64,000 bases of DNA from Myxococcales bacterium (GTDB taxonomy: Bacteria; Myxococcota; Myxococcia; Myxococcales; JAJYLH01): NCBI GenBank assembly GCA_021787845.1, contig JAJYLH010000001.1, forward strand, positions 238,736-302,735, written 5' to 3'. Both the position numbers and the translations under genes were made by a program. Positions within the stretch are counted from its first letter, which is position 1, and each line of letters starts with the position of its first letter. Of this stretch, positions 2,093 to 58,922 are shown one piece after another. The notes below the pieces were generated by a model that saw only the letters and a program-made list of their open reading frames with translations, did not search any database and had not been told where the DNA came from.

Positions 2093-3121
2093 TTACGCTT
2101 TTTGGGCGCCCTCGGAAAGAAAGCGCTCGAGGTCGCCCGGGTCGGCCGCCGTCCCGTTCGCTGCCGCACCCGCCGGGTCGCGGGCGGCGTTCTGGTCCCC
2201 CGCGGGTCTCGGCGCCGGCCTGGTCACCGGCGGCGCTGCTGCTTCCCGGACGACCGGCCGGGCCGCCGGATGCGCGGCCCCCGTGGGGGGCGGCTGCGCT
2301 GTCGGACCCTCGACGAGACCGAAATCGGTCGCGCAGAGCCGGACCAGGTCGGCGTTGACGAGCGACCGCTTCATCGTCGCTCCTTCGAAGAGGCAGTTGT
2401 CGCACAGGGTGTTGATCAGCCGCGGGATTCCTCCGGTGAAGCGGTGGACGGCCGCCACGGCCTCGGCGGAAAACGGCATCCTGGTCGCCCCGGCGATCTT
2501 CAGGCGGTGCTTGATGTAAGCCTCGGTCGCCTCGGCGGACAGGGGCTGGAGGCGGGTCTTCAGGCTCACCCGCTGGTCCAGGGGCGGGTCGAGCTTGAGG
2601 TGCTGCTCGAGCTCCGGCAGCCCGAAGAGCACGATCGTCAGGAGCTTGTGCTCGGGCAGCTCGAGGTTCAACAGACCGCGAAACTCCTCCATCACCTCGC
2701 GGTTCTCGAGCATCTGCGCTTCGTCGATCAGCAGGACCGCCTTGCGGCCCGACTCGTGAATCGTCAGCAGCCGCTGATAGAGCTGGCCGAGAAGGGTCAG
2801 CTTCTCGTCCGAGGGCTCTTCCACTCCGAGCTGGAGCGCGATGCGCTTCAGGAGCCACTGCGCGGTGATGCCCGAGTGGATGATGACGAGCAGAGCCGCC
2901 TCGTACTCGTCCTCCGCGAGGCTGTCCAGGAGCCGCCGGGCGAGGGTGGACTTGCCCGCCCCGACGTCGCCGACGAGGAGCGCGAGCCCTTTCGCCTGGC
3001 TCACGACGTAGGTGAGCCGCTCCAGCGCCTGCGCGTGCGAGGCGCTGTTGTAGTAGAACTGGCTGACCGGCGCGTTGGAGAATGGCTCCTGCTTCAGGCC
3101 GAAGTGTGCGAAATAGCTCAT
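2093..3121 (-). CDS. ExeA/GspA/MshM-like AAA+ ATPase (secretin or pilus assembly associated)
   Basis: 342-aa ORF with Walker A GDVGAGKST and Walker B LLIDEAQ. The N-terminus MSYFAHFGLKQEPF is typical of ExeA/MshM. The C-terminus is a Pro/Ala-rich tail with no obvious peptidoglycan-binding domain. Confidence 0.75.
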   Translation of the reverse strand: MSYFAHFGLKQEPFSNAPVSQFYYNSASHAQALERLTYVVSQAKGLALLVGDVGAGKSTLARRLLDSLAEDEYEAALLVIIHSGITAQWLLKRIALQLGVEEPSDEKLTLLGQLYQRLLTIHESGRKAVLLIDEAQMLENREVMEEFRGLLNLELPEHKLLTIVLFGLPELEQHLKLDPPLDQRVSLKTRLQPLSAEATEAYIKHRLKIAGATRMPFSAEAVAAVHRFTGGIPRLINTLCDNCLFEGATMKRSLVNADLVRLCATDFGLVEGPTAQPPPTGAAHPAARPVVREAAAPPVTRPAPRPAGDQNAARDPAGAAANGTAADPGDLERFLSEGAQKA

Positions 3122-6200: not shown

Positions 6201-6337
6201 ATCTCCGCCAGCTTCTGCAGGGCCCGGATGTCCTTCGGGTCCGCGTCGAGGATGCGCTGGAGCTCCTTGGCCGCCTTTTCGAGCTGGCCCTTGGAGGCGA
6301 GCTTGCCCGCCGACTCGAAGATCTTGGTCTTGTCCAT
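3293..6337 (-). CDS. TPR-repeat protein with internal acidic tandem repeats (MshN/FimV-like)
   Basis: Within track ORF 3293..6436, the start is placed at the internal MDKTKIFESAGK. TPR blocks occur at both ends and a Pro-rich acidic middle contains four copies of a 31-aa repeat. It sits immediately upstream of the ExeA-like ATPase, which matches the mshN-mshM pairing. Confidence 0.65.
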   Translation of the reverse strand: MDKTKIFESAGKLASKGQLEKAAKELQRILDADPKDIRALQKLAEIHQKSNRPKEATELLLKVAQGYTEQGFFLKAVSVYKQVLKLGEDRLEIHLRLAQLYQQLGLIGEATQQYQLVANQQDQSGNVKESLSALKRMVDLDPDNVANRVKLGELYARERMVPEAVQELDKAAAHLKKNQRSEDHLRVLERISQLVPDDGAVARELAQSYLARKDPRRALNKLQVCFRHDPKDPQTLSLLAAAFTDNGQPAKTVSVLRELARVHEEKGAREARREVLTRILLLAPGDPEATEALASLEPVLVPAAALSGGGTAPGKAIVLPAFVLPPDGSPRVTPSPVARPVLTPSPIAPLILTPSPMAPPILTPSPVGSPLVVPPAPARAAPPPAAEPESVDKLVIETDVFLKFRLVPKAAEHIARALALDPASLPANERLLTIYDRQEKPSEAIALLERMVELAHAAGDREREQQYAGDLARRAPDHPALAAAGPDDPIIEPDEMESAAALLADEALDDDAEFEIHTGSTIPPGAESQAALPAEAARDDDAGFEIHTGSTIPPGAESAPALPADEARDDDAGFEIHTGSTIPPSAESAPALPADEAQDDDVGFEIHTGSTIPPSAESAQAHPVLTPWDDDDLKEEAVVLDNAAPRPPAARPSIDLDDDEVDRALDRATGPHRTEPRPEPIRPDPFALFDQRPSSPSPPAPRPTGPAPTRSVAADQQASRKPQAVPPGDGPQAPGADSFEEDLAEIEFLIQQGLRDDARESLAQVLAQAPTHPRALALEKSLAGGPPAGEPGGRAAHPTPSESDLADELEGAFEAIAAKAASEAAPSTLEGSSLATRAPASRRARAGGEVEGAYDLGIAYFEMGRFDAAIEQLEAALQDRRRTIDALIALGLCQRERGDLAAAVDRFERALKTPGLTLDASKAVHYELGACAEELEQLPAAFDHFSRIVRADPAFRDAQARAQRLRPLVSGTGGESKPVHPVPATDRALAPPARPPREAPPAAVPRKGRKIGFL
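4478..4850. repeat. Four tandem copies of a 93-bp repeat (in-frame, coding) inside the TPR gene
   Basis: The motif gctctcggcgc(t/c)gggaggaatcgtcgagccggtatggat(c/t)tcgaac recurs at about 4481, 4574, 4667 and 4760. On the minus strand it encodes the repeat DDDAGFEIHTGSTIPPGAESAPALPADEAR(D/Q). Confidence 0.85.
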
Positions 6338-6591
6338 CGGCGGCAGAAGCGTCACCTCTCGCGAGCGGGCCGTCGCCGGCGCCGCGCCAAGCGACCGGAC
6401 ATGACCTGGCAGCGCTCCCGGACACCTGGAGGGCACCCGGAAGGCCTCGGGGAGGCATCGGGGAGCCGAGGCGCCCCCACTCGAGCTTCGAGGCTAGAGG
6501 GCGACCCCGGCGCGTGTCAACAAAACGTCCGGGAAAGCAGCGGGTTCCGGTGCAGCCGCCGACCGAGGGGAGCCTGGCTGCTCGAGGGCGT

Positions 6592-7861: not shown

Positions 7862-10537
7862 TCAAGGCGCCGGGATTACCGGCACGTCCGAGTCATCGAC
7901 GACCGTGTATTGCCCAGCCACCGTCGTGGCCGTCGCGATCACCGTGTCCGCGAAAGGCGCTGCGCCGGGTGCGGTGTATCCCACGAGCTCGAACGCGCCC
8001 GAGCCCAACGCCCCTCCGACCGGAATGATGTGCGTCTCCAACTTGCAGATGTGCGTCTGCTCGTCGCAGGTGGTGACGTCGGCGACCGACAGGGTGCCGA
8101 ACCCGTCGAGGTATTGGTTCGGCACGGGCGCGAGCAGCGTGACCTGGCCCTTGCCCACCACGCCCGCCCCAAAGGTGGTGGCCTGGTAAGAGGGCGCGTT
8201 GCCGTTCTCGTCCTGCCAGGTGAACTGGACCGTGGCGGACGCGCCGGGGGCCAGGGCGAGGCTCGATGGATCCGGGTTGCCGTACTTCCCATGGCTGGTC
8301 ATGAGGATGTGCCCCACCGCCCAGAGAGTCGTGTTCGCATCCCACTTGCCGTTCGGTCCGTCGTACTTGCCGTTCCCGTTCTCGTCGATGAAGAACTCGC
8401 CCGGGTCCCACTTGTTGTTGTCATTGGCGTCGATGTATGGCTCGCCTTCGTCGATGAAGTCCTCCCCTGGGTCGTACTGGCCGTTGCCGTTCGCGTCGAA
8501 GAACCCCTCCTCGCCTTGGGTGGTGACGATGAAGGTGACGAGGCCGTCACGCGGATTGCGTACCCTGGGCGACCCGTCGGCCGCCACGCAGGGGTCGTTC
8601 GGGTCTTGCGGCACCGTGAACTCGTTGGGCCAGGGCGGCACGTCCTCGGGCATGCGTGCGCCGAGCGTGGAGAGAACGTTCGTCGCCCGCCCCAGGCTCC
8701 CGTCGTCGGTCTTCGTTGGGACGGCCACCGGCAAGGGAGAAGGCGGACCGAACAGCCCGGCTTCGGTGTACCAGGTGACGACGCCCCCCGCGCCCAGCCG
8801 GTTGTTGAACCGGTCGCCTACCACTGCCGTGCAGTTCTCCTTGATGTCCGTCCACATGAAGCTGCAGTCGTTCCTCACGAGGGAGGGGATGGAGGCGTGT
8901 TCGCAGCGGACGGAGAAGTTTCGCCCATTGGCCTTGGCTCCGACGACGGCGATGGTCGAGCTCGTCGTCTCGGCGATGACCTTGCCGGTCGTGTCCTGGC
9001 CGAGGTAGGCCTGCGCGTGCACGGCGAACGTTCCCGCCGAGGTGCCGGAGTAGACGGTGAGGCTGGCCTCGCCGTTCACGCCCAGCGGCGTCTGCTGCGG
9101 GGCGAAGGAGACGCCGCAGTCGCTGTCGATGGAGAACACGAGCGTCGCTTGGCCGTTGAACGGCTGGTCGGTGGAGTCGAGAAGCTCGAACGTCAGCACC
9201 TGCTGTTCGCGAAAGCCGCTCGTCTTCACGCCCATGATGCCGAAGTCGGGGTCGTTGACGGGCGGGAGGAAGACGAGCGTTCCAGGAAGGACGATGTCGA
9301 ACGGAGTGTCGGCCCGGATGTCCGTGCCGTGGACGACCGCGCTGATCGTGCCGTTCGCCGGGCTATCGCCGGGCTGGAACCAGACGGTGGCGTCACCGTT
9401 CGCGTCGGTGGTCGCGCTCACGGTCGCGGCGAAGGTGCCGTTCGCGGCCGTCGCGAACTGACCGATGGCGCCGTCGACCGAGAAGTCTACGGTCTGGCCG
9501 AGGCCGGGAGTCTTGGTGTCGTTGGTGATGAGCGTCGCGACGACCTTGAACGGCGGGCTCTCGGCCGGAGCCCGCATCGCGGCGCGGGGCTTCACGCCCG
9601 AGTCGTCGTAGAGCGTCAGCACCAGGCTGTACTGATCTGGGCTGGGAACGTAGACATGGAACGGGACGTCCACCCGCTGCGACGTTCCCTGAAGGACCAC
9701 GGTGATCGTGCCGTTCGCCATCGTGCCGCCAGGCTTGAACCACGCGGTGGCCTTGCCCCCCACGTCGGTGGTCTCGCTCTGGGAAGCGCCATAGTCGCCG
9801 TCTGGCGTGGTGGCGAATTGGCCGATGTCGTTGTCCGCGGAGAAGACGACGGTCTGGCCAGCGCCGGGATTGCCGTGCTGGTCGGTGACGATCGCGGTGA
9901 TGCTGAACGGCGGGCCGTTGGTCAGAGCCGAGCCGGTGGTGAAGGGGAGCGGCACATCATTCGAGTCGTAGACCTCCACCGCCAGGCTGAAGGCGCCTTT
10001 CCCCGCCGTCGCGGCCGTCTTGCAAGCGCCGCTCGTCGCGTCGCAGGTGCCGCTCGCTCCGCTGGCGTCGGAGCAGGCCTTGCCGTCGCAGGCCGCCTGA
10101 CTGCAGTCCGGATGCGAGGCGTCGCAGGTCGAGGAGGTGGTCGAGCCCGTCGAGAGGGTGAACCCGACGGCGGTGGTCAACGCTTCACCGCCGATGGTGC
10201 CCGACGCCTTGACCACCGCGACGGTCCCCGTCGAGCACGTGCTGTCCTTCGTGGGGTCGCAAGCCGTGAACTTGGCCGTCGCCGTGCCGTCGCTGCCGAG
10301 GGTGACCGACGGGTGATCGACCGTTCCCTCCGTCGCCGTCAGGGTGATCTTGGCACCACTCGCGGGCGTGGTGGTCGTGCCCTCCACCGTTCGCCCGAAG
10401 ACGGTGAACGACACCTCCTTGCCCGGAGCGATGGTGTGGCCGCCCTGGACGTTGATGGTCAAGAGGTTCTGCTTGCTCACCTGGGAGCAGGCGGCGGCGA
10501 AGAGCCCGGCGGCGATGAGCGCGCGAGCGCGGAGCAT
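7862..10537 (-). CDS. large secreted/lipoprotein with Ig-like (Big) domains and thrombospondin type-3-like Ca-binding Asp repeats
   Basis: N-terminal signal with Cys (MLRARALIAAGLFAAACSQ). Repeated about 100-aa Ser/Thr/Gly-rich beta-domains follow. An acidic DxDxDGxxD cluster (FDANGNGQYDPGEDFIDEGEPYIDANDNNKWDPGEFFIDENGNGKYD) is present. Confidence 0.65.
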   Translation of the reverse strand: MLRARALIAAGLFAAACSQVSKQNLLTINVQGGHTIAPGKEVSFTVFGRTVEGTTTTPASGAKITLTATEGTVDHPSVTLGSDGTATAKFTACDPTKDSTCSTGTVAVVKASGTIGGEALTTAVGFTLSTGSTTSSTCDASHPDCSQAACDGKACSDASGASGTCDATSGACKTAATAGKGAFSLAVEVYDSNDVPLPFTTGSALTNGPPFSITAIVTDQHGNPGAGQTVVFSADNDIGQFATTPDGDYGASQSETTDVGGKATAWFKPGGTMANGTITVVLQGTSQRVDVPFHVYVPSPDQYSLVLTLYDDSGVKPRAAMRAPAESPPFKVVATLITNDTKTPGLGQTVDFSVDGAIGQFATAANGTFAATVSATTDANGDATVWFQPGDSPANGTISAVVHGTDIRADTPFDIVLPGTLVFLPPVNDPDFGIMGVKTSGFREQQVLTFELLDSTDQPFNGQATLVFSIDSDCGVSFAPQQTPLGVNGEASLTVYSGTSAGTFAVHAQAYLGQDTTGKVIAETTSSTIAVVGAKANGRNFSVRCEHASIPSLVRNDCSFMWTDIKENCTAVVGDRFNNRLGAGGVVTWYTEAGLFGPPSPLPVAVPTKTDDGSLGRATNVLSTLGARMPEDVPPWPNEFTVPQDPNDPCVAADGSPRVRNPRDGLVTFIVTTQGEEGFFDANGNGQYDPGEDFIDEGEPYIDANDNNKWDPGEFFIDENGNGKYDGPNGKWDANTTLWAVGHILMTSHGKYGNPDPSSLALAPGASATVQFTWQDENGNAPSYQATTFGAGVVGKGQVTLLAPVPNQYLDGFGTLSVADVTTCDEQTHICKLETHIIPVGGALGSGAFELVGYTAPGAAPFADTVIATATTVAGQYTVVDDSDVPVIPAP

Positions 10538-10605
10538 GGCGTCCTCCCACAGAGTCAAAGCGAGCAATCCGGGCGCGTCCGGGCCCGGTCTTCCCCAAGG
10601 CGCCG

Positions 10606-11285: not shown

Positions 11286-14042
11286 TCAGGGCGCCGCCGT
11301 CTCCGTCACCACCGATTCCTCGCGGTTGACGATGTGCGGGGTGATGAAGATCAGCATTTCCGTCCGTTGGTCCGAAACACTCTTTTGCGAGAACAAACGG
11401 CCGATGAGCGGGATCTTGTCCAGGAACGGGACCCCTTTGTCGGAGAGCGAGTTCGACCGGGTGTAGATGCCGCCGATCACGGTGGTGTCGCCGTCCTTGA
11501 CCACCACCTCGGTCTGTGCCTGCCGCTGGGAGATCGCCGGCTGGCCGTTCGCGCCGGTGAACGCCGCGTCGGGCTGGTTGTTGCTCGCGTTGATCTTCAT
11601 CACGATCGAGCCATCGGCGGTGACGTGCGGGGTCACCTGGAGCTGCAACATCGCCTGCATGAAGGTGGTGTTCGTCCCCGCCGCCGAGACCTCGCTGTAG
11701 GGAATCTGCACGCCCTGGCTGATGGTGGCCGACTTGTTGTCGAGGGTGGTCACCTTCGGCGCGCTCACCGTCTTGATCGTTCCGTTGACCTCGGCCGCGC
11801 TCAAACGCAGGTTGAGCTGCGCCGCTCCTCCCGCCGACCCGAAGACGAAGCCGACGCCGCCGCCGCTCCCGGTGCCGATGGCCGTCGGGAAGTTGATGAC
11901 GAAGTTCGGGTTGGCGCTGGTCGCGCTGGTCGGCGTCTGCCCGTCGGTCGCCGCCCCCGCGACCGAGACCAGGTTCGGAAAGATGAGACCGGTGGGATTG
12001 CCGGTGGCGGGGCTCGCCTGGAGATTGCCGCCCCACTGGATGCCGACCGACTGGGTGAAAGTGCTCTGCGCCTCCACGATCCGCGCCTCGATCAGCACCT
12101 CGGGAGTCTGGGTGTCGAGCAGGTGGACGAGCTGCTCCGCCTTCGCGAGCGAGCTGACGATGTCCTTGACGACGAGCACGTTGGTCCGGGCGTCGACCGA
12201 GACCGTCCCCCGGCTCGTCAGCACGTCCTTCACCCGCGAGGCGACCTGCTCGGCGGTCGCGTAGTTCACCGGGATCAGCCGGACCTTGAGCGGCTGCCGG
12301 AGGATGTCTTCCTTCTGCTCCTCCACCGCCTGCTTCTTCTCCGCGGCGAGCGTCGCGAGCGGCGCGATGCGGATGATGTCGCCCACGTTCTCCCGGCCCA
12401 GACCCTTGGTCTTCAACACCACGTCGAGGGCCTCGTCCCACGGCACGTTGCGCAGCCGCACCGAGACCGTCCCCTTGACGTCGCTCGAGGCGACGATGTT
12501 GCGCTTCGCGATCTCCGCGATGGCCTGGATGAACTGGATGATGTCCAGGTCTTTCGCGGTGAAGTCGACCCGCCGCCCCGTGTACTCCGGCTCGGCGCGA
12601 GGCCCGGCCGCCCCCGCGTAGGCCCGCGCCTCGCCCAGGAACCCACCGGGACCGCTCCCGCCTCCCGGCGGATCGGCCTGGGCCAGCTCGACCGGACGGC
12701 GGTCGCTCTGGGTGAAGGTCCACACGATGCCCACCGACGGCCCCACCCGCATCTTCGCGAGCCGGGTGCGGACCGCGCGCGCTCCCCGCTTGAGCCCGAC
12801 GACCAGCTTCACCCCTTCGGGGACCCCCAGCGAGGCCACGTACGCCACCGGGCCGGCGAGCAGCGACGCGTCCAGCTTCCGGGCCAGTCGCTCGGGGAGA
12901 GCGGCGCCGTGCAGTAGGAGCGTATCCGTCCCCCCCGGCGCCGCCGACTGGTCGACCGCGACCTGCCGGTCGAGCACCACCACCACCCGGGTCGAGCGGC
13001 CGTGGGTCGACACGTCCAGGGAGCGTACCCGCGGCGTCCGCCCCAAGGAAGCGCTGCCGCTGCCCGGGCCCGCGGCGAGCGGCTCCTCTCGCGCCGAGGC
13101 GACCATCCGGGGAATCGCCCGGGGGTCGGAAAGCCGTCCAGCACCGAGCCGGCGCGCCAGGACCGGCGCCGGCGTCAGACCCACCTCGACGATGAGCCCG
13201 TGCCCGGTCCGGAGGATGTGGAACGGCGGGAACCGGTCGCCCCGGGCCTCGAGCACCACCCGCAGCGCCCCCTGTCGCGGGGCGACCCTCAGGGCGGTGA
13301 CGTCTCCGACCTGGCGGCGCTCGTCGCGCGTCTTGCCGGTGAACCCGGCGAGGTCCAAGGCGATGCGCCCGGGATTCTTGAGCTCCATCAGCTCGTACTT
13401 GGCGATGGGGCCGTCGCAGACGAGCTCGAGCCGCACCTTCTGGCCCGCGCGCGAAAGCCGGGCAAGGACGAGGCGCGACCCGCCCCGCACCCCTTCCGGC
13501 AGCCGGTCGACCTCGACCCGCACCACGTTGTCGCCGAGGGGCGCCGCCGGCTTGGGGCTAGGAGCGGTGGCGGCTACCGGCTGCGGTGCCGGGGTGCCCG
13601 TGAGCGAGACGACGAGGCCGGTGGGCGAAGACTGGACCTCGAACCGGGTGCCCGCCCGGACGGTGATGACCACCCGGCCGACTCGCGAGCGGGCGTCGTC
13701 GAATTGGGTCGCCTGGATGCTTTGCACGAGCCCCTGGCCGGCGATCCTGCCCGAGCGCTCGAGGGCCGTCACGTCGGCGCTGGACAGGTCGATCACGACC
13801 CGCGGCGGCTGGTCGAGCTTGAAGACGGTGAACGTCGGCTCCCGGTCGGCGATGAGCCGGACGATGCCCGTCTTCAGGGTCGCGTGGAGGTCGACTCGGG
13901 TCACCTTCGCCACCGGCGGCGGGACCTGGGCGCGCGCGGTCTGGCCGAAAGCGCCCGAGACCGAGAGAACCGCCGCGATGAGGGGCGGAAGCCCTTTCGG
14001 GCGGCGAGCGCGGAAAAAGCGCCTCATGCGGCGATCCTCCAA
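11286..14042 (-). CDS. pilQ: type IV pilus secretin PilQ (three N-terminal AMIN-like domains plus C-terminal secretin domain)
   Basis: The C-terminal secretin signature (VLIEARIVE...GGIYT...VPFLDKIPLIGRLF...MLIFITPHIV) and N-terminal AMIN-like beta-repeats are present. The alternative start MRRFF is 15 nt downstream. Confidence 0.9.
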   Translation of the reverse strand: MEDRRMRRFFRARRPKGLPPLIAAVLSVSGAFGQTARAQVPPPVAKVTRVDLHATLKTGIVRLIADREPTFTVFKLDQPPRVVIDLSSADVTALERSGRIAGQGLVQSIQATQFDDARSRVGRVVITVRAGTRFEVQSSPTGLVVSLTGTPAPQPVAATAPSPKPAAPLGDNVVRVEVDRLPEGVRGGSRLVLARLSRAGQKVRLELVCDGPIAKYELMELKNPGRIALDLAGFTGKTRDERRQVGDVTALRVAPRQGALRVVLEARGDRFPPFHILRTGHGLIVEVGLTPAPVLARRLGAGRLSDPRAIPRMVASAREEPLAAGPGSGSASLGRTPRVRSLDVSTHGRSTRVVVVLDRQVAVDQSAAPGGTDTLLLHGAALPERLARKLDASLLAGPVAYVASLGVPEGVKLVVGLKRGARAVRTRLAKMRVGPSVGIVWTFTQSDRRPVELAQADPPGGGSGPGGFLGEARAYAGAAGPRAEPEYTGRRVDFTAKDLDIIQFIQAIAEIAKRNIVASSDVKGTVSVRLRNVPWDEALDVVLKTKGLGRENVGDIIRIAPLATLAAEKKQAVEEQKEDILRQPLKVRLIPVNYATAEQVASRVKDVLTSRGTVSVDARTNVLVVKDIVSSLAKAEQLVHLLDTQTPEVLIEARIVEAQSTFTQSVGIQWGGNLQASPATGNPTGLIFPNLVSVAGAATDGQTPTSATSANPNFVINFPTAIGTGSGGGVGFVFGSAGGAAQLNLRLSAAEVNGTIKTVSAPKVTTLDNKSATISQGVQIPYSEVSAAGTNTTFMQAMLQLQVTPHVTADGSIVMKINASNNQPDAAFTGANGQPAISQRQAQTEVVVKDGDTTVIGGIYTRSNSLSDKGVPFLDKIPLIGRLFSQKSVSDQRTEMLIFITPHIVNREESVVTETAAP

Positions 14043-14085: not shown

Positions 14086-14658
14086 TCATGGCGCCGGGCT
14101 TCCCACCACCCGTTCGTTCGAGATGGCGTGATCGGCCACTTCTTCGGCCGCGGTCTTCGGCATCTTGAGATGGAGGTACTCGTGCGAGACGGTGCCGGTC
14201 TGCTGGTCGGCGATGGTCTCGGTGATCGTCAGATCCTCCTGGCCGATGTGGCTGACCATTCCCCAGTCGCGGCCGACGAAGTCGCCCAGCCGGACGAGGT
14301 GGGCCTTCCCGGTCGGGTCCTGAATCAGCGCCTGGGGCGCGGCCGTGCCAGTCATCGTCATCTTCAGCACGAGCTGGTCCAGGTCGAACTTCTGCAGGGC
14401 TTGCAGGGGGCGACTCTCCAACGCCACGTCGTGGATGTAGCGGGTGCCGCTGGCCCCTTGGTTCGGGTTCTGGAAGGGGTCCCGCTTGCCCTTCGGGTCG
14501 TAGACGTAGAGGTCGGCAGCGGTCTCGGTGTCCGCCAGGGTGTCGTCGGCGACGGCGACCTTCTTGTGGCTCGCGGTCAACGAGCGGGTCGGCGGCAAGG
14601 TGGGCGCGCAGGCGGCGAAGGCGAGGAGCGCCGAGAGGGCGAGCTTCGGAGGCATCAT
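14086..14658 (-). CDS. pilP: type IV pilus assembly lipoprotein PilP
   Basis: 190 aa with a lipoprotein signal (LLAFAACAP). It lies between pilO and pilQ and has a PilP-like C-terminal beta-domain. Confidence 0.75.
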   Translation of the reverse strand: MMPPKLALSALLAFAACAPTLPPTRSLTASHKKVAVADDTLADTETAADLYVYDPKGKRDPFQNPNQGASGTRYIHDVALESRPLQALQKFDLDQLVLKMTMTGTAAPQALIQDPTGKAHLVRLGDFVGRDWGMVSHIGQEDLTITETIADQQTGTVSHEYLHLKMPKTAAEEVADHAISNERVVGSPAP

Positions 14659-15260
14659 CGGCGTCCCTTCTTCGCCGGCGGTGCCGGAAGGAAGCTGAAG
14701 GTGGTCACGGAGAAGGCCGCGTCGACGATGATTTTGTCGTTCTTCATCCGCGGGTTCTTGAGGTCGAGGTTCGCGACGTTGACGATCCGTTTCAGGTGCC
14801 GGAGGGCGTCGAAGAAGACCGCGATTTCCGGGTAGGCGCCGGTCGCCGACATCTGGAACGGGATCTCCGCGTAGAACTGCGCGCGCCGTTCGGCCTTGGG
14901 CTCCAAGGTGTTGATCGAAAGCCCCGCCTTCTGCGCCGTCGCGTAGACGCTCTCGATGATTTCCGGGATGTTCGCCTGCTCGGGCATCTCCGTCAGCGCC
15001 TTCTTCAGCTTCTGCTCCAACAGCTCCTTCTGGCGGCGATAGACCGGCAGGTTGTCGGCCGTCGCCTTGTCCTCGATCATCTCGTCTTCCAGGTGGCGGC
15101 TCTGCGCGATGGCGCTGTTGGTGTCGTCCCAGATGCTCGAGACGAAGAGGAAGTAGTTGCCCGCGGTCAGCCCTCCGGCGATGGCGAGGACGATCGCCAC
15201 CTTCCCCCCCAGCGGGATCCGCCGGACGAAATCCATCACCTGTTCAACCGGGGAGGCCAT
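14655..15260 (-). CDS. pilO: type IV pilus assembly protein PilO
   Basis: 201 aa with a single N-terminal TM helix and a coiled-coil region. Its position and 4-bp overlap with pilP support the call. Confidence 0.75.
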   Translation of the reverse strand: MASPVEQVMDFVRRIPLGGKVAIVLAIAGGLTAGNYFLFVSSIWDDTNSAIAQSRHLEDEMIEDKATADNLPVYRRQKELLEQKLKKALTEMPEQANIPEIIESVYATAQKAGLSINTLEPKAERRAQFYAEIPFQMSATGAYPEIAVFFDALRHLKRIVNVANLDLKNPRMKNDKIIVDAAFSVTTFSFLPAPPAKKGRR

Positions 15261-15266
15261 CGTCTC

Positions 15267-16853
15267 TCACCGTCTTGGCGTGTTCGACACGCCGCAGCTC
15301 ACCGAGAAGTCCACCGCGTCCCCCGCGGCGCGGGTCGGTCCGAGCGTGGGAGCGCTGAAGAACTTGGACCCTTCCAGCCGCTTGACGAAGCTCGCCACGT
15401 CGTCGTAGGAGGCGGCGCTCCCGGTCATGGTCGCCTTTCCCCCCTGTATCTCGAACGTCTTCAGCCACACCCGCTTCGGGATGATCGTCGACAGCTCGTC
15501 CATCACCCGCACCGGGCCGGTCCGCCCGTCCTTGAGGGTCTGGAGCACCTTGAGCTTCTGCTCGATGTTCGCTTTCTCCGCCTTGATGTTCTTGACGTCG
15601 CCGATGATGCTCTTGAGCTTCTTGATCTGAACGTTGAAGTTCTCGACCCGTTCGTGCGCCGCGTTCAGGCCCTGCTGGGTGGCGTCGTACCAGAAGTAGT
15701 TGCCGACGGCCGCCCCGAAGAAGACCAACGCGAACAACACCAGCCACTGCTTGCCGACCTCGCGCTTCTTCGAGGCGCGCACCGGCAGGAGGTTGATGTC
15801 GTCGTCGACCTTTCGCAGCGCGAGCCCGACGCCCACCGCCGACGACGGCGCGATCTCCATCAGATAGGCGGGGTCGAACTTGCGGTTGTCGATCTCGATC
15901 GCCTTGAACGGGTTGAGGATTTCGACCGGGACCCCGATGCGCTGCTCGATGATCTTGAACAGGCTCGGAATCTTCGCGGTGCCGCCCGAGAGGTAGACCT
16001 TGGAGATGCGCGCGTCCGCCGCGGTCGCGGCGTAGAAGTCCAGGCTGCGCTGAATCTCCCCCGCGAGCTGCGCGGCGACGCCCTGGATGACCCGCTCCAC
16101 CTCCTGCGGAACCACCGAGTCGGTCTCGCTCAGGTCGCCCCCGACCTTGAGCTTCTCCGCCTCGTCGTAGCTGACGTTGAGCTGCTTCTGAATCTCCTCG
16201 GTGAACTGGTTGCCGCCCATCGAGACGTCGCGGGTGAACGTCGTGACGCCCTGGGCGATGACGTTGATGTTGACGACGCTCGCGCCGACGTTGATGAGAA
16301 CCACCGTGTCGGTGTGCGAAATCTCGTAGGAGGTCTCGAACGCGCGTTGGACCGCGAAGGCGTCGACCGCGACCACCGTGGGGACGAGGCCCGCCTCCGC
16401 GATCACCGCGCTGTAGTCGTTGATCATGTCCTTCTTGGCGGCGACCAGAAGGACGTCCATGTGGCCGGTGGCGTCGTCGCCGGTGCCGAGGAGCTTGACG
16501 TCGATGTTCACGTCCTTGACGTCGAAGGGGATGTACTGCTCCGCCTCCCACTGGATCGATTCGTCCAGCTCCTCCTTCGTCATCTTCGGCAGCGAGATCT
16601 TCTTGATGATGACGCTGTGGCCGCTGATGCCCAGGGCGACGTTCTTGTTCTTGATCTTCGCCTGGGCGAACAGCTCCCGGATCGCGTCGACGATGGCCGC
16701 GCTGTTCATCAGCGCGCCGTCGACGATCGCTTCCGGCGGCAGCGGCGCCACGCCGAACGAGTCGAGGACGAAGCCGCGCTTGCTCTCCCGCAGGTGGACG
16801 AGCTTCACGCTCGAGGAGCCGATGTCGAGGCCGACCGCGAGCTTCTGCGCCAC
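15267..16853 (-). CDS. pilMN: fused PilM-PilN (actin-like ATPase PilM joined in frame to the PilN N-terminal INLLP motif, TM helix and periplasmic domain)
   Basis: Single 528-aa ORF. Residues 1 to about 350 are PilM-like (MAQKLAVGLDIGSSSVKLV...GLALRKVDD). This is followed without a stop by DINLLPVRASKKREVGKQWLVLFALVFFGAAVG and a PilN-like domain. Confidence 0.8.
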   Translation of the reverse strand: MAQKLAVGLDIGSSSVKLVHLRESKRGFVLDSFGVAPLPPEAIVDGALMNSAAIVDAIRELFAQAKIKNKNVALGISGHSVIIKKISLPKMTKEELDESIQWEAEQYIPFDVKDVNIDVKLLGTGDDATGHMDVLLVAAKKDMINDYSAVIAEAGLVPTVVAVDAFAVQRAFETSYEISHTDTVVLINVGASVVNINVIAQGVTTFTRDVSMGGNQFTEEIQKQLNVSYDEAEKLKVGGDLSETDSVVPQEVERVIQGVAAQLAGEIQRSLDFYAATAADARISKVYLSGGTAKIPSLFKIIEQRIGVPVEILNPFKAIEIDNRKFDPAYLMEIAPSSAVGVGLALRKVDDDINLLPVRASKKREVGKQWLVLFALVFFGAAVGNYFWYDATQQGLNAAHERVENFNVQIKKLKSIIGDVKNIKAEKANIEQKLKVLQTLKDGRTGPVRVMDELSTIIPKRVWLKTFEIQGGKATMTGSAASYDDVASFVKRLEGSKFFSAPTLGPTRAAGDAVDFSVSCGVSNTPRR

Positions 16854-17148
16854 TGCCCTCTCCTCAAAACGCCCGGCCGTCTCGCCATCGGCCTGGCCGC
16901 CCCCTCAAACGGCGGGGCTCCGTCCCGGTGATTTCGCTCCCCCTCGACCAGGAGCGCCTCCCGAGCGCGAGAGGCGATGTTACACTGCGGCCGAAGCGCC
17001 CTCCAAGTTTTCGACCGCCACAGAGCCTGCTTTTGTGGGCGCATGGAGGCTTGCGGCGCACCCCTGACGACCCACGACGAAAGACGATGCTAGGACGGCG
17101 AGCGGCCTTGGCAAGAAAACGGCCGCCTCTCGTTCTTGGGAGCCCTCG

Positions 17149-17913
17149 ATGGATCTCGCGCTTTCTGGAAAGGTGGCGGTGGTCTGTGGCGCGAGCCGCG
17201 GCATCGGACGAGCGACCGCCTCGGCGCTCGCCCAGGAAGGATGCCGGCTCGTGCTCGCCGCGCGCGGCACGGGCCCGCTCGACGCGCTCGCCGAGGAGCT
17301 GTCTCGGTCCGGCGTCGAGGTCGAGGCGGTGGGCGTCGACCTCACGAGCGAGGCGGGACCGCAAACGCTCATCGGCAGGGCTCTCGCCAGGTTCGGAGGG
17401 GTCGACGTGCTCGTCAACCTGGTCGGCGGCAGCTCCGGCGGGAGCTTCGAGGCGAACACCCTCGCCGATTTCGAGCAAGGCTTCGCCCGCAACTTCTGGC
17501 CGGCGTTGAAGGCGAGCAAGGCCGCTCTAGAAGCCCTGATCCGCTCCCGGGGGGCCGTGATCCACGTCGGGTCGATCTGGGGTCGCGAGGCGGGCGGTCC
17601 TGTCGCCTACAACGTCGCGAAGGCGGCGCTCGTCAGCTTGACCAAGGCGATGGGCCAGGACCTCGCGCCCCACGGCGTGCGCTGCGTCGGGGTCCTGCCG
17701 GGCAGCATCCTCCATCCGGGCGGCTCCTGGGACCGCCGACTGAAAGCGGACCCGGAGGGCGTCACCCGGTGGATGAAGCAGGAAATCCCCGCCGGCCGCT
17801 TCGGCACCGCCGAGGAGGTCGCCCACGTCATCGCCTTCCTCGCGAGCGAAAGAGCGAGCTGGATCACCGGCAGCGTGGTCGTCGTCGACGGCGGGCAGAG
17901 CCGGATGTTCTAG
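17149..17913 (+). CDS. SDR-family oxidoreductase (3-oxoacyl-ACP reductase-like)
   Basis: GASRGIGRA Rossmann motif, and a catalytic Y near position 153 (YNVAKAA). Confidence 0.85.
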   Translation: MDLALSGKVAVVCGASRGIGRATASALAQEGCRLVLAARGTGPLDALAEELSRSGVEVEAVGVDLTSEAGPQTLIGRALARFGGVDVLVNLVGGSSGGSFEANTLADFEQGFARNFWPALKASKAALEALIRSRGAVIHVGSIWGREAGGPVAYNVAKAALVSLTKAMGQDLAPHGVRCVGVLPGSILHPGGSWDRRLKADPEGVTRWMKQEIPAGRFGTAEEVAHVIAFLASERASWITGSVVVVDGGQSRMF

Positions 17914-18506
17914 GCGGGAGCGCTCTCGTCTTCCGGGTCGCCTCCGAGCAGCTCGTCGACCTTGAGCTCGACCGCGTCGAAGGGCTCGGCCCGGACTTTC
18001 TGGCCCCGGTGGGCGGTGAGCACGAGCGCATAGCTCAGGTCGGTGTGGCGCAGCACTTCGAGCGTGCCCGCAGCCGGATCGACGATCCAGTAGTGGGGTA
18101 TCCCCGCCTTGAAGTAGGTCTCGAGCTTCTCGACCCGGTCGCGGTCCGCATTCGAAGGGGAGAGGATTTCGCAGACCCAGTCGGGCGGCAGCTCAATGAG
18201 CTTGGAGCGTGGCGGCTCGGGCATCCGCTCGCGTCGGTAGCCGCAGATGTCCGGCCGGTAGACCTCGCGGCCGAGTCGGATGTCGAGTTCGGTGAAGAAC
18301 CACCATCCGCCAGGGAGGCGGCCACCCGGTCGGCGAGCAAACAGATGGCCGACGTGCCGGTCGATCCCGCTTTGCGCCAAGGAGTGCTCGGGCAGCGGCG
18401 CGGCTTTCTCGACGATGGTCCCGCGGATGAGCTCGATGCGTTCCTCGCGCTCGGCTTTCGCCAGGAACTCCTCGATCGTCACCTCGCGTCGGGTCGCGGT
18501 AGACAT
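17910..18506 (-). CDS. Uma2-family (DUF820) putative endonuclease, paralog 1
   Basis: 198 aa with PDWVCEILSPSNADRDRVEKLETYFKAGIPHYWIVDP, characteristic of the Uma2/DUF820 PD-(D/E)xK-like family. Confidence 0.7.
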   Translation of the reverse strand: MSTATRREVTIEEFLAKAEREERIELIRGTIVEKAAPLPEHSLAQSGIDRHVGHLFARRPGGRLPGGWWFFTELDIRLGREVYRPDICGYRRERMPEPPRSKLIELPPDWVCEILSPSNADRDRVEKLETYFKAGIPHYWIVDPAAGTLEVLRHTDLSYALVLTAHRGQKVRAEPFDAVELKVDELLGGDPEDESAPA

Positions 18507-18552: not shown

Positions 18553-19914
18553 TCACCTGTCGTCGCCCGGCTCGCGAGAAATGCGCGACGCGAGGATCTC
18601 CTCGAGACGTTCCTTGAGCCGCCTCTCCTCCCCGTTCTCGCCCAGCTCGACGTAGCGCCGCCCCCGCAGCTCGTCCGGCAGGTACTCCTCGGGCACGTAG
18701 TTCCCGGCGAAGTTGTGGGGATACTTGTAGCCGCCGCCGTAGCCGAGCTTCTCCATCAGCGCCGTCGGAGCGTTGCGGATGTGCAGCGGCACCTCGAGAG
18801 CGCCCTGGTCCACCACGTCCTTGCGCGCGGCGGCGTAGGCCTTCAAGGCGGCGTTCGACTTCGGCGCGAGGGCGAGATACGTCACCGCCATCGACATGGG
18901 CAGCACCGCTTCCGGTAAGCCCACGAGCTCGGCGGCGTGGAAGGCGTCGAGCGCGATGGAGAGCGCGCGCGGGTCGGCGTTCCCGATGTCCTCGCCGGCG
19001 AAGATCACCATCCGCCGGAGCAGGAACCGCGTCGGCTCTCCCGCCTCCAGCATTCTAACCATATAATAAATCGCCGCATCGGGGTCGGACCCGCGCATCG
19101 ACTTGATGAACGCGCTCGCCAGGTTGTAGTGCTCCTCGCCCTGCTTGTCGTAGCGCAACGACCGCTGCTGGAGCGCGTCTTCGGCGTCGGACAGCTCGAT
19201 CCGTGGAGGAGCCCCGGAGCGCTCTCGGATAAGCGCAGCGCTATCGGCAATCTCCAGCGCTACCAACCCCCGCCGGGCGTCGCCGTCGGACCTGCGGGCG
19301 ATGAAATCGAGCGCCTGCGGGTCCGCCTCCACGCGATCGTTCGCGAGCCCCCGCGGATCGGCCAGTGCTCGCTCCAAGAGCGCGCGGATGTCCGTCTCGT
19401 CGAGCGGCTTGAGCACAAACACCCGCGCCCGCGACAAGAGCGGCGCGTTCACCTCGAAGGACGGGTTCTCGGTGGTGGCGCCGATGAGCGTGACGATGCC
19501 GCGCTCGACGTGCGGCAGGAGCGCGTCCTGCTGCGCCTTGTTGAAGCGGTGGATCTCGTCGACGAAGAGGAGCGTCCGCCGCCGCTCCATCGCCCGCCGC
19601 TCGCGGGCCTTTTCCACCACCTCCCGGATGTCCTTGACCCCGGAGAGGACGGCGGAGAGCTGGACGAACTCGGCCTGGGTGTGGTGGGCGATGAGCCGAG
19701 CGAGAGTGGTCTTGCCCACCCCTGGGGGCCCCCAGAGAATCATCGACGGCACCCGGTCCGCCTCGATGGCGCTCCTCAGGAGCGTTCCTGGTCCGACGAG
19801 GTGGTCCTGCCCCACGAGCTCGTCGAGCGTGCGCGGCCGGAGCCGCTCGGCCAGCGGCAAGAGGTTCGGGTCGCGCTCGGCGGCATGCTCGAAGAGGTCC
19901 ACCAGCCGCTTCAT
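18553..19914 (-). CDS. rarA: replication-associated recombination protein A (AAA ATPase RarA/MgsA)
   Basis: Internal start MKRLVDLF of track ORF 18553..20577. Walker A GPPGVGKTT, LLFVDEIHRFNKAQQD, and the conserved C-terminal MgsA domain are present. Confidence 0.85.
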   Translation of the reverse strand: MKRLVDLFEHAAERDPNLLPLAERLRPRTLDELVGQDHLVGPGTLLRSAIEADRVPSMILWGPPGVGKTTLARLIAHHTQAEFVQLSAVLSGVKDIREVVEKARERRAMERRRTLLFVDEIHRFNKAQQDALLPHVERGIVTLIGATTENPSFEVNAPLLSRARVFVLKPLDETDIRALLERALADPRGLANDRVEADPQALDFIARRSDGDARRGLVALEIADSAALIRERSGAPPRIELSDAEDALQQRSLRYDKQGEEHYNLASAFIKSMRGSDPDAAIYYMVRMLEAGEPTRFLLRRMVIFAGEDIGNADPRALSIALDAFHAAELVGLPEAVLPMSMAVTYLALAPKSNAALKAYAAARKDVVDQGALEVPLHIRNAPTALMEKLGYGGGYKYPHNFAGNYVPEEYLPDELRGRRYVELGENGEERRLKERLEEILASRISREPGDDR

Positions 19915-19959
19915 AAGCAAATCGCGCGCTTCTGGAAAGCTGCTAGCCTCCCTCGCGCG

Positions 19960-20805
19960 ATGCGGACGGTGGCGCTCATCCCGAAGCGTTCCAAGCCCGA
20001 GGCGGTGGCCCTCGCCGAGAAGGTGGCCGACTGGCTGATCGAACGGGGCATGGCCGTCCTGAGCGAGGACGCCTTCGCCGTGCGGGGGACGACACCGGTG
20101 CCGGGCTCCGCCCTCGCCCAGGCCGCCGACCTGGTGGTGGTGCTCGGCGGCGACGGCACGCTCCTGCACGCGGCGCGGCTCACGAGCGGCCACGAGGTGC
20201 CGATTCTCGGCGTCAACTACGGCTCGCTCGGCTTCATGACCGACGTGCCGCGCGAGAAAACCTTCGAGGCGCTGGAGCACACCCTCGCCGGCCGTTACAC
20301 GCTGGAGAAGCGCACCAAGCTCTCGGTCGAAATCGTTCGCGGCGACAAGACCATCCATGCCGGCGAGGTCCTGAACGACGCGGTGATCGCCAAGACCGCC
20401 CTCGCCCGCATCGCCGACCTGGAAACGAACGTCGCCGGCGGCTACCTCGCCACCTTCCGCGCCGACGGGGTGATCATCTCGACGCCCACCGGCTCCAGCG
20501 CCTACTCGCTCGCGGCAGGGGGACCGCTCCTGCACCCCGGCGTGCGAGCGATCGTGGTCACGCCCATCTGCCCGCACACCTTCACCCAGCGGCCCATCGT
20601 GCTGCCCGAGGACGTCCCCATCGAGCTGAAGCTCCTGAGCGACGACGAGATGTTCGCGACCCTCGACGGCCAGAGCGGCCTGCCGCTCAAGCGTAGCGAC
20701 CGGGTGCTCGTGCGCCGCTCACCGACCGGCATCGTCCTCGTGCGCTCGGACCAGGCGAGCTACTTCGCGGTCTTGCGCAACAAGCTGCGCTGGGGCGAGC
20801 GCTAG
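19960..20805 (+). CDS. nadK: NAD+ kinase
   Basis: 281 aa with the GGDGTLL motif, NYGSLGF, and TPTGSSAYSLAAGGP. It is divergent from rarA with a 45-bp spacer. Confidence 0.9.
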   Translation: MRTVALIPKRSKPEAVALAEKVADWLIERGMAVLSEDAFAVRGTTPVPGSALAQAADLVVVLGGDGTLLHAARLTSGHEVPILGVNYGSLGFMTDVPREKTFEALEHTLAGRYTLEKRTKLSVEIVRGDKTIHAGEVLNDAVIAKTALARIADLETNVAGGYLATFRADGVIISTPTGSSAYSLAAGGPLLHPGVRAIVVTPICPHTFTQRPIVLPEDVPIELKLLSDDEMFATLDGQSGLPLKRSDRVLVRRSPTGIVLVRSDQASYFAVLRNKLRWGER

Positions 20806-21297: not shown

Positions 21298-22653
21298 CTA
21301 CTTGTCGCTGAGCATGAAGCGCGGATCGGCGAGTTGCTTCTCGGCGAACTGCGCCGCTGGTGTCCCCGGGAAGCGCTGCAGGACCTGGGTGTAGAGCCGC
21401 TTGGCGCCAGATTGATCGCGCATCCGCTCGTCCAACACCCGGCCGGCGATCACCAGCGCCTTCGCGGAATCCCCCCCGTCGCCGCGACCGGCCGCGAGGA
21501 GCGCCGTCATCGCCAGCGCCAGCTCATTCTGGCTCGCCGCCGCCTGGCCGCACCGGAGCAGAACCGAGGGCGAAATCGGCTCCTGCCCCTTGGCAACGCT
21601 CCGGTAAAGGCTGAGCGCTGCCGCCACTTCGCGCTGGTCGAGCAGCGCCACGAGCTGCGACTCGACGGAGGCCGTCGGAACCGGAGCCGGAGCCGGTTCG
21701 GCCGGCTTCTCGGGAGCGCTGTCCTCGGGCGTCGGCGCTTCCGGATCCCCGAGGTCGACGAGCGCGTCCTCCGCCTCGCCGAACCCGAGCTCCTCCGGGT
21801 GGAGCCAGCCCGCCTGCCCCAACAACAAGAACGTCGCGTAGGCACCGTAGCTCGCCAGCACCGCGACCACGAACCCCTCGAACCGGCCCGCGGGGAGCGC
21901 CCAGCCGAGGAGGAACGCGACGAGGAAGCTGCCCCCGGCGAAGAGGGATATCCAGCCGTACTCCCGCGGAAATCGACGAACCGGGAAGAGCGCATGGACG
22001 GGGTTGAAGAGCTTGCTCCATTCGGTCGTGCGGGCGGCGTGGAGGAGCATCAGCGGCATGGTCCCCACCGCGAAGAGCGACGCGAGCCAGAACGTCGGCG
22101 CCGTCGCCAGGCGCAGCGCGAGCGAGCGGGCGGAAACGCTCGCGCCTTTCAGCGCGAAGCCCTCGATTCCAATCAGCAGCGCGAGGGTCGGGAGCGCCGC
22201 CGCCGCCAACACCCGCGCGAGCGGCATCACCACCTCGTCCATCGCTTCGGCCGGCGCCGGCCACTCGAACGGCTCGTCCTCGGCGGTCGCCCGCAAGAGC
22301 CTGAGGCCGAGGGACAGCGTGATCGTCAAGGCGACGGCCGACACGAGGAAGGCGAGCGGCAGCGAGCTCGCGGCGAGGAAGGCGAGGAAGAAGAGCAGCG
22401 CGGTCACCGCCGTCGAGACCGACACCCGCGGATGGGTCAGCGGGCCGAGCGCGGCCAACCGGAGGCGGTCGAGGAAGCGATGGAGCTGCGCTCGGGGTTT
22501 GCGCAGCAGCTCGGCGTCTTCACCGTCGGCCGGACAGCGGAAGCGCATCCGGGGGCCGCGCTGCCGGCGCACGTGCGACGCGCACTTCGGGCCGCATTTC
22601 GGGCAGACCCAGGCGGCCGGCGCTTGGCACACGCTGCAGGGCGCGAGCTCCAT
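21298..22653 (-). CDS. membrane protein with an N-terminal zinc ribbon and a C-terminal TPR-like domain, hypothetical
   Basis: CSVCQ...CPKCGPKC...RCP Cys pairs, at least 6 predicted TM helices, and a helical TPR-like C-terminus. Start chosen at MELAPCSV inside track ORF 21298..22716. Confidence 0.45.
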   Translation of the reverse strand: MELAPCSVCQAPAAWVCPKCGPKCASHVRRQRGPRMRFRCPADGEDAELLRKPRAQLHRFLDRLRLAALGPLTHPRVSVSTAVTALLFFLAFLAASSLPLAFLVSAVALTITLSLGLRLLRATAEDEPFEWPAPAEAMDEVVMPLARVLAAAALPTLALLIGIEGFALKGASVSARSLALRLATAPTFWLASLFAVGTMPLMLLHAARTTEWSKLFNPVHALFPVRRFPREYGWISLFAGGSFLVAFLLGWALPAGRFEGFVVAVLASYGAYATFLLLGQAGWLHPEELGFGEAEDALVDLGDPEAPTPEDSAPEKPAEPAPAPVPTASVESQLVALLDQREVAAALSLYRSVAKGQEPISPSVLLRCGQAAASQNELALAMTALLAAGRGDGGDSAKALVIAGRVLDERMRDQSGAKRLYTQVLQRFPGTPAAQFAEKQLADPRFMLSDK

Positions 22654-22708
22654 GAAAAGAGAATAGCGCGAACCACTGCCGTCCAAGAACGCGCCGCATC
22701 GGAGATGT

Positions 22709-22972
22709 CCGCTCATCCCGAGCGCGGTCGATGGATGGGCGTCGCCGCAGAGAACCGCTCGTCCCTCGTCCTTCGACTGGCGGTAGCGCGGGGCTTGCGC
22801 CCGCTACCCAAGCCATGGGGCGGGGGCTTGTCCTCCGCCGCGACAGGAGCCGACTTCTCGAGCACGGCGGGGACAAGCCCCCGCCCGACAGATCTGGTTC
22901 GGTCACAGAATCTTCGCGCGGCGACAAGATTCTGCGGCTCAGTGGATCACGATGACCGCTCGGGATGAGCGG
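22709..22972. other. 264-bp element bounded by 16-bp perfect terminal inverted repeats with nested hairpins (MITE-like or structured RNA)
   Basis: Left arm CCGCTCATCCCGAGCG (22709-22724) is the exact reverse complement of CGCTCGGGATGAGCGG (22957-22972). Inside are a 16-bp perfect inverted repeat (GGGGCGGGGGCTTGTCC at about 22816-22832 with GGACAAGCCCCCGCCC at about 22871-22886), a 9-bp inverted repeat (CAGAATCTT-N11-AAGATTCTG at about 22906-22934), and GGTAGCG...CGCTACC at about 22782-22808. Confidence 0.6.
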
Positions 22973-45875: not shown

Positions 45876-45953
45876 CGCTCGGCCATTTGACAGCACCCCG
45901 GCCACGGCTTCATCGTGCCTTCCCGCGTTTTTTCTGTGCCGGGAGCCCCAACG

Positions 45954-56394: not shown

Positions 56395-56445
56395 TCGCGA
56401 TCAGACCGATCCGTCCGATCCGACCGATCGGTCCGATCCTCGCGT
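56395..56445. repeat. palindromic intergenic repeat, copy 4
   Basis: cgcgatcagaccgatccgtccgatccgaccgatcggtccgatcctcgcg, lying between the convergent ruvB and lon stops. Confidence 0.8.
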
Positions 56446-56471
56446 GCGTCGGAAAGCGGCCTTGACGCCGT

Positions 56472-58922
<2,451 letters not shown>

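Follow-up and report, generated by a model that had tools for sequence, protein, structure and literature searches.

A probable in-frame fusion of pilM and pilN in the pil operon of a myxococcal genome

The question raised by this locus is whether one uninterrupted open reading frame (ORF) that covers both pilM and pilN, two genes between which Myxococcus and its relatives have a stop codon, a spacer and a new start, encodes a true single-chain protein or merely reflects an error of sequencing or assembly. The ORF lies on the reverse strand at positions 15267..16853 of a 64,000-nucleotide stretch of contig JAJYLH010000001.1 (assembly GCA_021787845.1, a Myxococcales bacterium), and this whole stretch is called the window below; its DNA is high in GC (69.6%), and the names of its homologues suggest a host within Myxococcota. 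Our analysis indicates that the gene is very probably a genuine in-frame pilM–pilN fusion of recent origin whose product would be one bitopic protein. The architecture as such is already present in many public sequences, with GspL as its textbook analogue and the chimera 5EOU as its engineered precedent. An earlier note, made from the letters of the window alone, had described a single 528-residue PilM plus PilN ORF, and this description was borne out by the ORF list, by the Pfam and TIGR01175 profiles and by contiguous matches to the two Myxococcus xanthus proteins.

The gene comprises 528 codons and a stop, with a GTG start codon at 16851-16853 and a TGA stop codon at 15267-15269 in the ORF list (all features of the gene are on the reverse strand), and a Shine–Dalgarno-like sequence, GAGGAGAGGG, could be read at 16856..16865, a few bases 5′ of the start. 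NCBI/ENA-derived collections contain an identical protein of 528 aa, P0001. Residues 1-347 (15813..16853) form the actin-like ATPase-fold domain of PilM, which ends with the conserved GLALR and was delimited by TIGR01175, by the match to 3JC8 and by AlphaFold2 (AF2) modelling with Foldseek. Pfam PilM_2 (PF11104) was assigned to residues 8-348 (E 3e-81, 273 bits against a cut-off of 27) and NCBIfam TIGR01175 to residues 3-349 (276.1 bits, with the cut-off at 133, over positions 2-348 of the 348 in the profile), and Pfam PilN (PF05137) was assigned to residues 449-521 (E 3.9e-16, 59.3 bits against a cut-off of 22.8). In a PDB sequence search, residues 4-352 matched M. xanthus PilM (3jc8_Ma, E 1.5e-157) and residues 353-496 matched M. 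xanthus PilN (3jc8_Na, E 1.4e-41), the two matches being contiguous and in one reading frame. The PilM part is 67% identical to the M. xanthus PilM in 3JC8, and the nucleotide-binding glycines and aspartate of PilM are conserved. By sequence profile and fold the N-terminal part is thus a PilM, while it is not the soluble cytoplasmic product of a gene of its own.

Between the two parts, the translation runs free of stops as ...GLALRK-VDDD-INLLPVRASKKREVGKQ-WLVLFALVFFGAAVGNYFWY... The five-residue linker K348-V-D-D-D352 (15798..15812) takes the place of three elements, the stop of pilM, the spacer and the M-I-R start of pilN, according to 83 junction translations, a DNA alignment with the two loci L001 and L082 (introduced below) and a survey of linkers. 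It is followed directly by the INLLP motif (residues 353-357, 15783..15797), which aligns to the INLLP of 5eou_A and which in a separate PilN is the N-terminal PilM-binding peptide. The junction, which the earlier note had sought at about 15790-15830 and had read as running without a stop into INLLP, a transmembrane helix and PilN, was confirmed as such and could be set at 15783-15815. A single transmembrane helix is predicted for W370-Y389 (15687..15746) from its hydrophobicity and its position inside an AF2 helix of residues 359-442, and the basic stretch RASKKREVGKQ precedes it on the cytoplasmic side. Residues 390-442 (15528..15686) would form the periplasmic coiled-coil segment of PilN, as indicated by the continuous AF2 helix to residue 442 and the 3jc8_Na match to residues 353-496, and residues 447-522 (15288..15515) the ferredoxin-like periplasmic core of PilN (PF05137 at 449-521; alpha/beta in AF2, with a predicted local distance difference test score (pLDDT) of 84-90). 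With a PilN domain above cut-off, one transmembrane helix and INLLP, the C-terminal part would qualify as a PilN, for which binding of PilM by INLLP is predicted. No ATG, GTG or TTG codon occurs in frame from the PilM end to INLLP, the first being the GTG at V358, past the motif, so that a separate PilN bearing INLLP could not start from a canonical codon.

How the same genes are arranged in close relatives was assessed with a word-indexed homologue search over about 5.8 billion proteins followed by locus retrieval. The loci comprised 80 from GTDB species representatives, the locus of P0004 (the closest separate PilM on a long contig, 83% identity) and 80 JGI metagenome loci obtained with a PilM-only query; junctions were translated for 83 loci (82 besides the fused locus L001), and 74 loci of the metagenome set were scorable. 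A pilM stop, a spacer of 3 to >60 nt and a pilN start of the form M(M)IR-INLLP were found in 156 of the 156 loci in which both genes could be located, and the separate-gene relatives carry 5-7 residues past LR in PilM and 3-4 before INLLP in PilN. No relative with the same junction sequence but two annotated genes, which the earlier note had named as the observation that would speak for two genes, was found among these loci. Among the 120 best PilM matches, 116 are separate proteins of 347-359 aa with 74-86% identity, the closest being P0003 at 86%, and the remaining four are two fused genes and two chimeras. The 120 best PilN matches of a junction-centred protein search were all separate, with no more than 60% identity and mostly 178-181 aa; this search listed only separate PilNs and neither P0001 nor P0002, the two fused proteins, and is unsuited to finding fusions. 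L082, the nearest of the separate loci, is syntenic with the window. Compared with the separate loci, the window lacks approximately the last PilM residue, the stop, the spacer and the PilN M-I-R, and the loss of these elements points to one in-frame deletion. The fusion is thus rare among close relatives on the sequences compared, with two sequences in its clade.

A selected read-through from pilM into pilN was also considered, prompted by the finding that pilN lies in the frame of pilM in 80 of 82 separate-gene loci (the GTDB loci with L082 and L083). It was ruled out by the unbiased PilM-only JGI sample, in which 25 of 74 loci (34%) are in frame, as by chance; the pattern of 80 in 82 arose because these loci had been ranked with the fused query.

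The second fused gene in the clade encodes P0002, a protein of 530 aa at locus L001 in Logan run SRR22388057, which is an independent assembly of a second organism. The two proteins share 81% amino acid identity over their full length and the genes 80% nucleotide identity; the N-terminus, MAQKLAVGLDIGSS, is the same in both, and L001 has the neighbours of the window gene, namely a gene for a short-chain dehydrogenase, upstream and on the opposite strand, and pilO, downstream. The junctions read GLALRKLGDDE-INLLP in P0002 and GLALRKVDDD-INLLP in the window protein, differing by one codon (3 nt) and several substitutions. By the Nei–Gojobori method, the synonymous divergence (dS) between the two genes is about 0.56, and the ratio of nonsynonymous to synonymous divergence (dN/dS) is 0.27 overall, with 0.15 for PilM, 0.28 for the junction and transmembrane region and 0.44 for PilN; the PilM parts are 92% identical and the PilN parts 59%. 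These ratios indicate that both halves are under purifying selection. An open frame with a whole-codon junction indel, kept through such wide divergence, is the pattern of a functional fused gene.

These observations bear directly on the possibility of a sequencing or assembly artefact, in which a lost stop or an indel would have merged two truly separate genes. In its favour, none of the 156 related loci is fused, and false PilM–PilN fusions do exist in databases (P0371, P0005 and P0081). We nevertheless regard this explanation as very improbable, given that stop, spacer and start were removed cleanly and in frame at the junction with no point error, that homology is unbroken on both sides of it, that a different organism carries the fusion at L001 with a one-codon difference, that the overall dN/dS is well below neutrality at 0.27, and that the PilM–PilN architecture recurs in many other lineages, in some of them on long contigs. 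Of the two readings left side by side by the earlier note, a genuine fusion and a frameshift or assembly artefact, the former is hence favoured by P0002, by the one-codon junction difference and by purifying selection.

The false fusions can be told from the real ones by their sequences. P0005 (453 aa) and P0081 (432 aa) have both Pfam domains but lack the PilM C-terminus and the PilN N-terminus, jumping from mid-PilM to mid-PilN, and both come from the SRC source only, with no contig; they were classed as probable internally deleted chimeric gene or protein assemblies and left out of the fusion count. P0371 was rejected as a frameshifted read-through with long arginine/serine-rich segments of out-of-frame nonsense. 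Such entries in public collections would inflate counts that rest on domain architecture alone.

Fusions in other lineages were sought with a HMMER scan of the whole window protein against 1.84 billion cluster representatives, of which the best 150 were considered. At least eight of these are full-length fused representatives, each aligned across the junction: P0241 (581 aa), P0242 (555 aa), P0244 (560 aa), P0248 (586 aa), P0250 (556 aa), P0256 (550 aa), P0258 (558 aa) and P0316 (580 aa). With a profile built from ten fusions (alignment A4), about 47 fused proteins of 520-608 aa combining PF11104 and PF05137 were found among the 120 matches listed. The fused proteins come from NCBI, JGI, ENA and Logan, on contigs of up to 1.19 Mb, and the only name given to any of them is "type IV pilus assembly protein PilM", the named ones belonging to Bradymonadia, Myxococcota and "Pseudomonadota" metagenome-assembled genomes; an example is MFZ4734881.1 from Bradymonadia, 581 aa, with the database name PilM. 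They resemble the window protein in the order of PF11104 and then PF05137 and in a junction of the style GLxLR-(6 aa)-INLLP, while their overall identity to it is only 37-53%. In P0241, P0248, P0256 and P0316, an insertion of about 25-35 residues (e.g. ...RRWNPDWDPKRLW...) was observed in the PilN periplasmic domain, near columns 505-535 of the alignment; it is common to many of the other-lineage fusions and absent from the window protein and from separate PilNs.

In a rough neighbour-joining tree of the PilM domain, the window protein and P0002 form a small clade with the separate-gene P0003 as its sister, and the clade is embedded in a wider set of PilMs from separate genes; the fused clade of Bradymonadia branches within other separate-gene PilMs, and further fused groups are scattered. 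This suggests several independent origins of the fusion, the best-supported candidates for independent events being the window clade and the Bradymonadia clade. The view of the earlier note that the fusion might be lineage-specific holds in so far as none of the 156 separate loci is fused and the fusion is rare among close relatives, and gives way where the architecture recurs in Bradymonadia and others. Phrase searches of the available literature found no publication on natural PilM–PilN fusions of type IVa pilus (T4aP) systems.

The linker was compared across 47 fused proteins matching the pattern, as the distance from GLxLR at the PilM end to the INL of the PilN motif. It is of 6 residues in 32 of the 47, with diverse sequences (KTGDFR, QVGDGR, RADDAH, KDNDGR, CMDDEE, SPTDSG, HEEDEN, TIGDSH and KLGDDE), and of 11-19 residues in 14. 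Across the ten fusions aligned, N354 and L355 do not vary and I353 and P357 hardly do; in some fusions that are more divergent, the motif has partly decayed (HINLLR, EINLDP and AINLMA). From the short fixed linker and the retained motif, it would follow that the PilM C-terminus lies near where the bound peptide begins and that the contact between peptide and groove is probably still used once the two are tethered. The convergence in linker length and the retention of the motif suggest that this contact is needed for structure or allostery, beyond anchoring PilM to the membrane. The recurrence of the fusions together with the 6-residue linker may be a small unreported point.

Whether the window gene could be a real fusion but a decaying allele without function, in lineages on the way to losing type IV pili, was weighed against the same comparisons. 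The confinement of the fusion to two sequences in its own clade would fit such decay, as would the faster change of PilN than of PilM between the two fused genes (59% against 92% identity; dN/dS of 0.44 for PilN), yet PilN is also the faster partner in separate-gene relatives and dN/dS is well under 1 in all segments. The INLLP motif, the transmembrane helix and the nucleotide-binding glycines and aspartate of PilM are moreover kept, and the downstream pilO, pilP and pilQ are intact and tightly packed, all of which makes decay highly improbable.

[quoted passage not shown] Like the window protein, GspL is one chain with a cytoplasmic PilM-like actin-fold domain, one transmembrane helix and a periplasmic PilN-like ferredoxin-fold domain, the latter pairing with GspM, the homologue of PilO. 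Pfam T2SSL (PF05134) matched the window protein at 26.0 bits against a cut-off of 25.5, for residues 58-175 only (profile positions 37-145 of 231), and PilM_2 scored far higher. Unlike GspL, the window protein has T4aP sequences, keeps INLLP and is encoded in a pilMNOPQ operon with an AMIN-domain secretin and no gsp neighbours. On these features it is best read as a recent independent fusion and not as a GspL orthologue or a member of that family.

The closest characterised homologues are PilM and PilN of M. xanthus (model 3JC8), whose operon has the order pilM-N-O-P-Q as in the window. Between the two genes, Myxococcus and its relatives have a stop, a spacer and an MMIR start, all of which the window has lost. 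The Pseudomonas aeruginosa PilM:PilN(1-12) chimera 5EOU resembles the window protein in that the PilM C-terminus is joined to the INLLP peptide (...LRSFDSSGMARINLLPWR) and aligns with it through the junction, and the AF2 model of the window protein is nearer to 5EOU than to unbound PilM. The chimera, which has been crystallised, differs in being artificial, in its connection of 9 residues (SFDSSGMAR) against 5, and in lacking the transmembrane helix and the periplasmic part of PilN. The Amuc_1101 family (NF045709, 608 positions) is likewise long and PilM-like, and its profile aligns to residues 2-477, into the transmembrane helix and coiled coil; the window protein falls outside the family, scoring 224.2 bits where 650 is the cut-off.

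The structure of the fused protein was predicted with AF2. A mixed alignment of fused, PilM-only and PilN-only sequences (A1) was discarded, since it had misplaced 108 residues of every PilN under PilM, and a run on two close fusions with PilM-only sequences (A2) was superseded by one on a fusion-rich alignment (A5), which gave a mean pLDDT of 87.6 and a predicted template modelling score of 0.70. In the A5 model, pLDDT is about 90 for the PilM domain, 78 for residues 351-360 and 73 for residues 361-370; one unbroken helix (359-442) makes up the juxtamembrane, transmembrane and coiled-coil segments, followed by a well-defined alpha/beta PilN core (447-522). In Foldseek searches of the PDB with this model, 3jc8_Ma gave a template modelling score of 0.90. 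PilN-bound PilMs gave 0.92 at 2.5 Å (2ych_A) and 0.86 at 3.1 Å (5eou_B, with the alignment lengthened to 361 columns), against 0.73-0.77 at 4.6-5.2 Å for unbound PilMs (5eox, 5eoy and 5eq6), and the A2 model ordered PilN-bound over unbound PilM in the same way. The PilM part of the model thus resembles PilN-bound PilM, which fits docking of INLLP in cis.

Several points weigh against a genuine fusion that works as one docked chain. Only two fused sequences are available in the clade of the window, the second of them on a 4.4-kb contig, although a systematic error common to both assemblies is very unlikely given the one-codon difference at 20% divergence. No other copy of pilM or pilN was found within the 64-kb window, the rest of the genome lying outside this view. 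The 5-residue linker (KVDDD) occurs in the window only and is the shortest in the survey, one residue less than any other. The A2 run reached a mean pLDDT of only 78.5, with about 52 at the junction and less than 50 for residues 358-370. In addition, cis and trans docking are indistinguishable in a model of the monomer.

The last of these points, together with the shortness of the linker (5 residues, against 6 in the majority of natural fusions), leads to the alternative that INLLP binds the PilM of a neighbouring protomer in trans and that the PilM ring is thereby daisy-chained, the more so as the model of the M. xanthus machine has PilM and PilN in a 12-mer ring (PMC8389850). The engineered single chain of 5EOU, by contrast, is used in the field as a PilM:PilN complex, the junction of the monomer model reaches a pLDDT of about 78 with PilM in its PilN-bound shape, and a recurrent linker of 6 residues would be explained no less well by a fixed intramolecular geometry; on balance, we consider binding in trans rather doubtful. 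Less likely still is the more elaborate idea that the window fusion is among several independent repetitions of the event that formed GspL and that its 5-residue tether may be too short for relaxed docking in cis, leading either to a strained PilM held permanently in its "PilN-bound" state or to binding of a neighbour. Were either strained cis docking or trans docking true, cycles of PilM–PilN association and dissociation would be unneeded for pilus extension and retraction, and in the trans case the PilM ring would be covalently daisy-chained.

The fused gene heads an operon in which pilO (14655..15260, reverse strand; Pfam PilO, E 9e-34) has its ATG 6 nt past the stop of the fused gene, pilP (14086..14658, reverse strand; Pfam PilP, E 5.4e-17) overlaps the end of pilO by 4 nt, and the secretin gene pilQ (11286..14042, reverse strand; Pfam Secretin, AMIN in two stretches, Secretin_N and STN) follows; gaps and overlaps do not exceed 6 nt from the fused gene through pilP. 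With pilO, pilP and an AMIN-domain pilQ adjacent and in order, this is a T4aP PilMNOPQ cluster. No pilin, PilB/T or PilC was found among the about 20 long ORFs scanned within the window.

Further genes lie on the same strand beyond pilQ. A 901-aa ORF (7862-10567, reverse strand) between pilQ and efp has a single Pfam match, the bacterial Ig-like Big_1, and may encode a surface or periplasmic protein tied to the pilus operon. Downstream of efp, three genes follow on the strand of the pil genes (2093-3121, 3293-6436 and 1-2013, all reverse); the three are an AAA_22 ATPase (342 aa), a multi-TPR protein of 1047 aa and a large ORF that crosses the window edge, with a weak DUF748 match. The ATPase/TPR pair recalls accessory pairs of the ExeA/MshM-MshN type.

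On the other side of the operon, a gene for a putative endonuclease of the Uma2 family (17910-18506, reverse strand; E 3.9e-30) adjoins the short-chain dehydrogenase gene, by which it is set apart from the pil operon and which is syntenic in L001 and L082. At 18553-20805, two antisense ORFs overlap nearly completely: one of 674 aa (reverse strand) with an AAA+ P-loop, GPPGVGKTT, RarA/MgsA-like by its sequence, in its C-terminal part, and one of 622 aa (forward strand) with an NAD-kinase-like GGDGTLL motif, likewise assigned by sequence, in its C-terminal part. In reality the two genes are probably shorter and have their 5′ ends towards each other, and the long antisense overlap is likely an artefact of high GC. 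Farther away, a 1382-aa protein encoded at 45915-50063 (forward strand) has multiple Ig-like domains of the ASH/HYDIN type, DUF1573 and FG-GAP repeats and is probably a large secreted or surface protein. Two more ORFs on the reverse strand, at 56401-58992 (863 aa) and 21298-22716 (472 aa), have the high GC at third codon positions and coding-like composition of genes, with no Pfam match at E <= 1e-5.

Taken as a genuine fusion, the gene probably arose when a small in-frame deletion took out the pilM stop, the short spacer and the first three pilN codons (M-I-R). The product would be a single bitopic inner-membrane protein consisting of cytoplasmic PilM, linker, INLLP, transmembrane helix, periplasmic coiled coil and PilN ferredoxin-like domain, and a cytoplasmic PilM domain would be consistent with the basic RASKKREVGKQ ahead of the helix. 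Within the PilMNOPQ alignment/assembly subcomplex, this one chain would probably take the roles of PilM and PilN together. On the one hand, its PilN part would pair with periplasmic PilO and be linked via PilP to PilQ; this pairing of PilN with PilO and the link of PilP to PilQ are established for the M. xanthus and P. aeruginosa machines. On the other hand, its PilM part would lie under the membrane and contact PilB, PilT and PilC, with the INLLP peptide most likely still in the PilM groove, probably in cis. We infer a function in pilus assembly and docking in cis, and any selective advantage would be presumptive as well.

The tether would make the link of PilM to the membrane permanent and the ratio of synthesis strictly 1:1. 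The earlier note had drawn attention to both the tethered INLLP and the fixed ratio, which is reasonable, the point about the ratio being tempered by the model of the M. xanthus machine, which already has PilM:PilN at 1:1.

The finding leaves the current picture of T4aP machines unchanged and its importance is modest. Its practical side is that such proteins carry only the label "PilM" in databases, so that automated inventories would score pilN as missing in these genomes. The fusions also show a simple genetic route to a protein of the GspL type, by in-frame deletion of stop, spacer and start. The structural study of McCallum et al. 2016, as summarised in PMC6325625, suggests that binding of PilN alters the shape of P. 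aeruginosa PilM and its choice of partners. It leads one to ask whether the contact between the two is dynamic during extension and retraction. A natural single-chain PilM–PilN protein offers a ready-made test of this question: if it is functional in the pilus, PilM has at no point to part from PilN or from the membrane.

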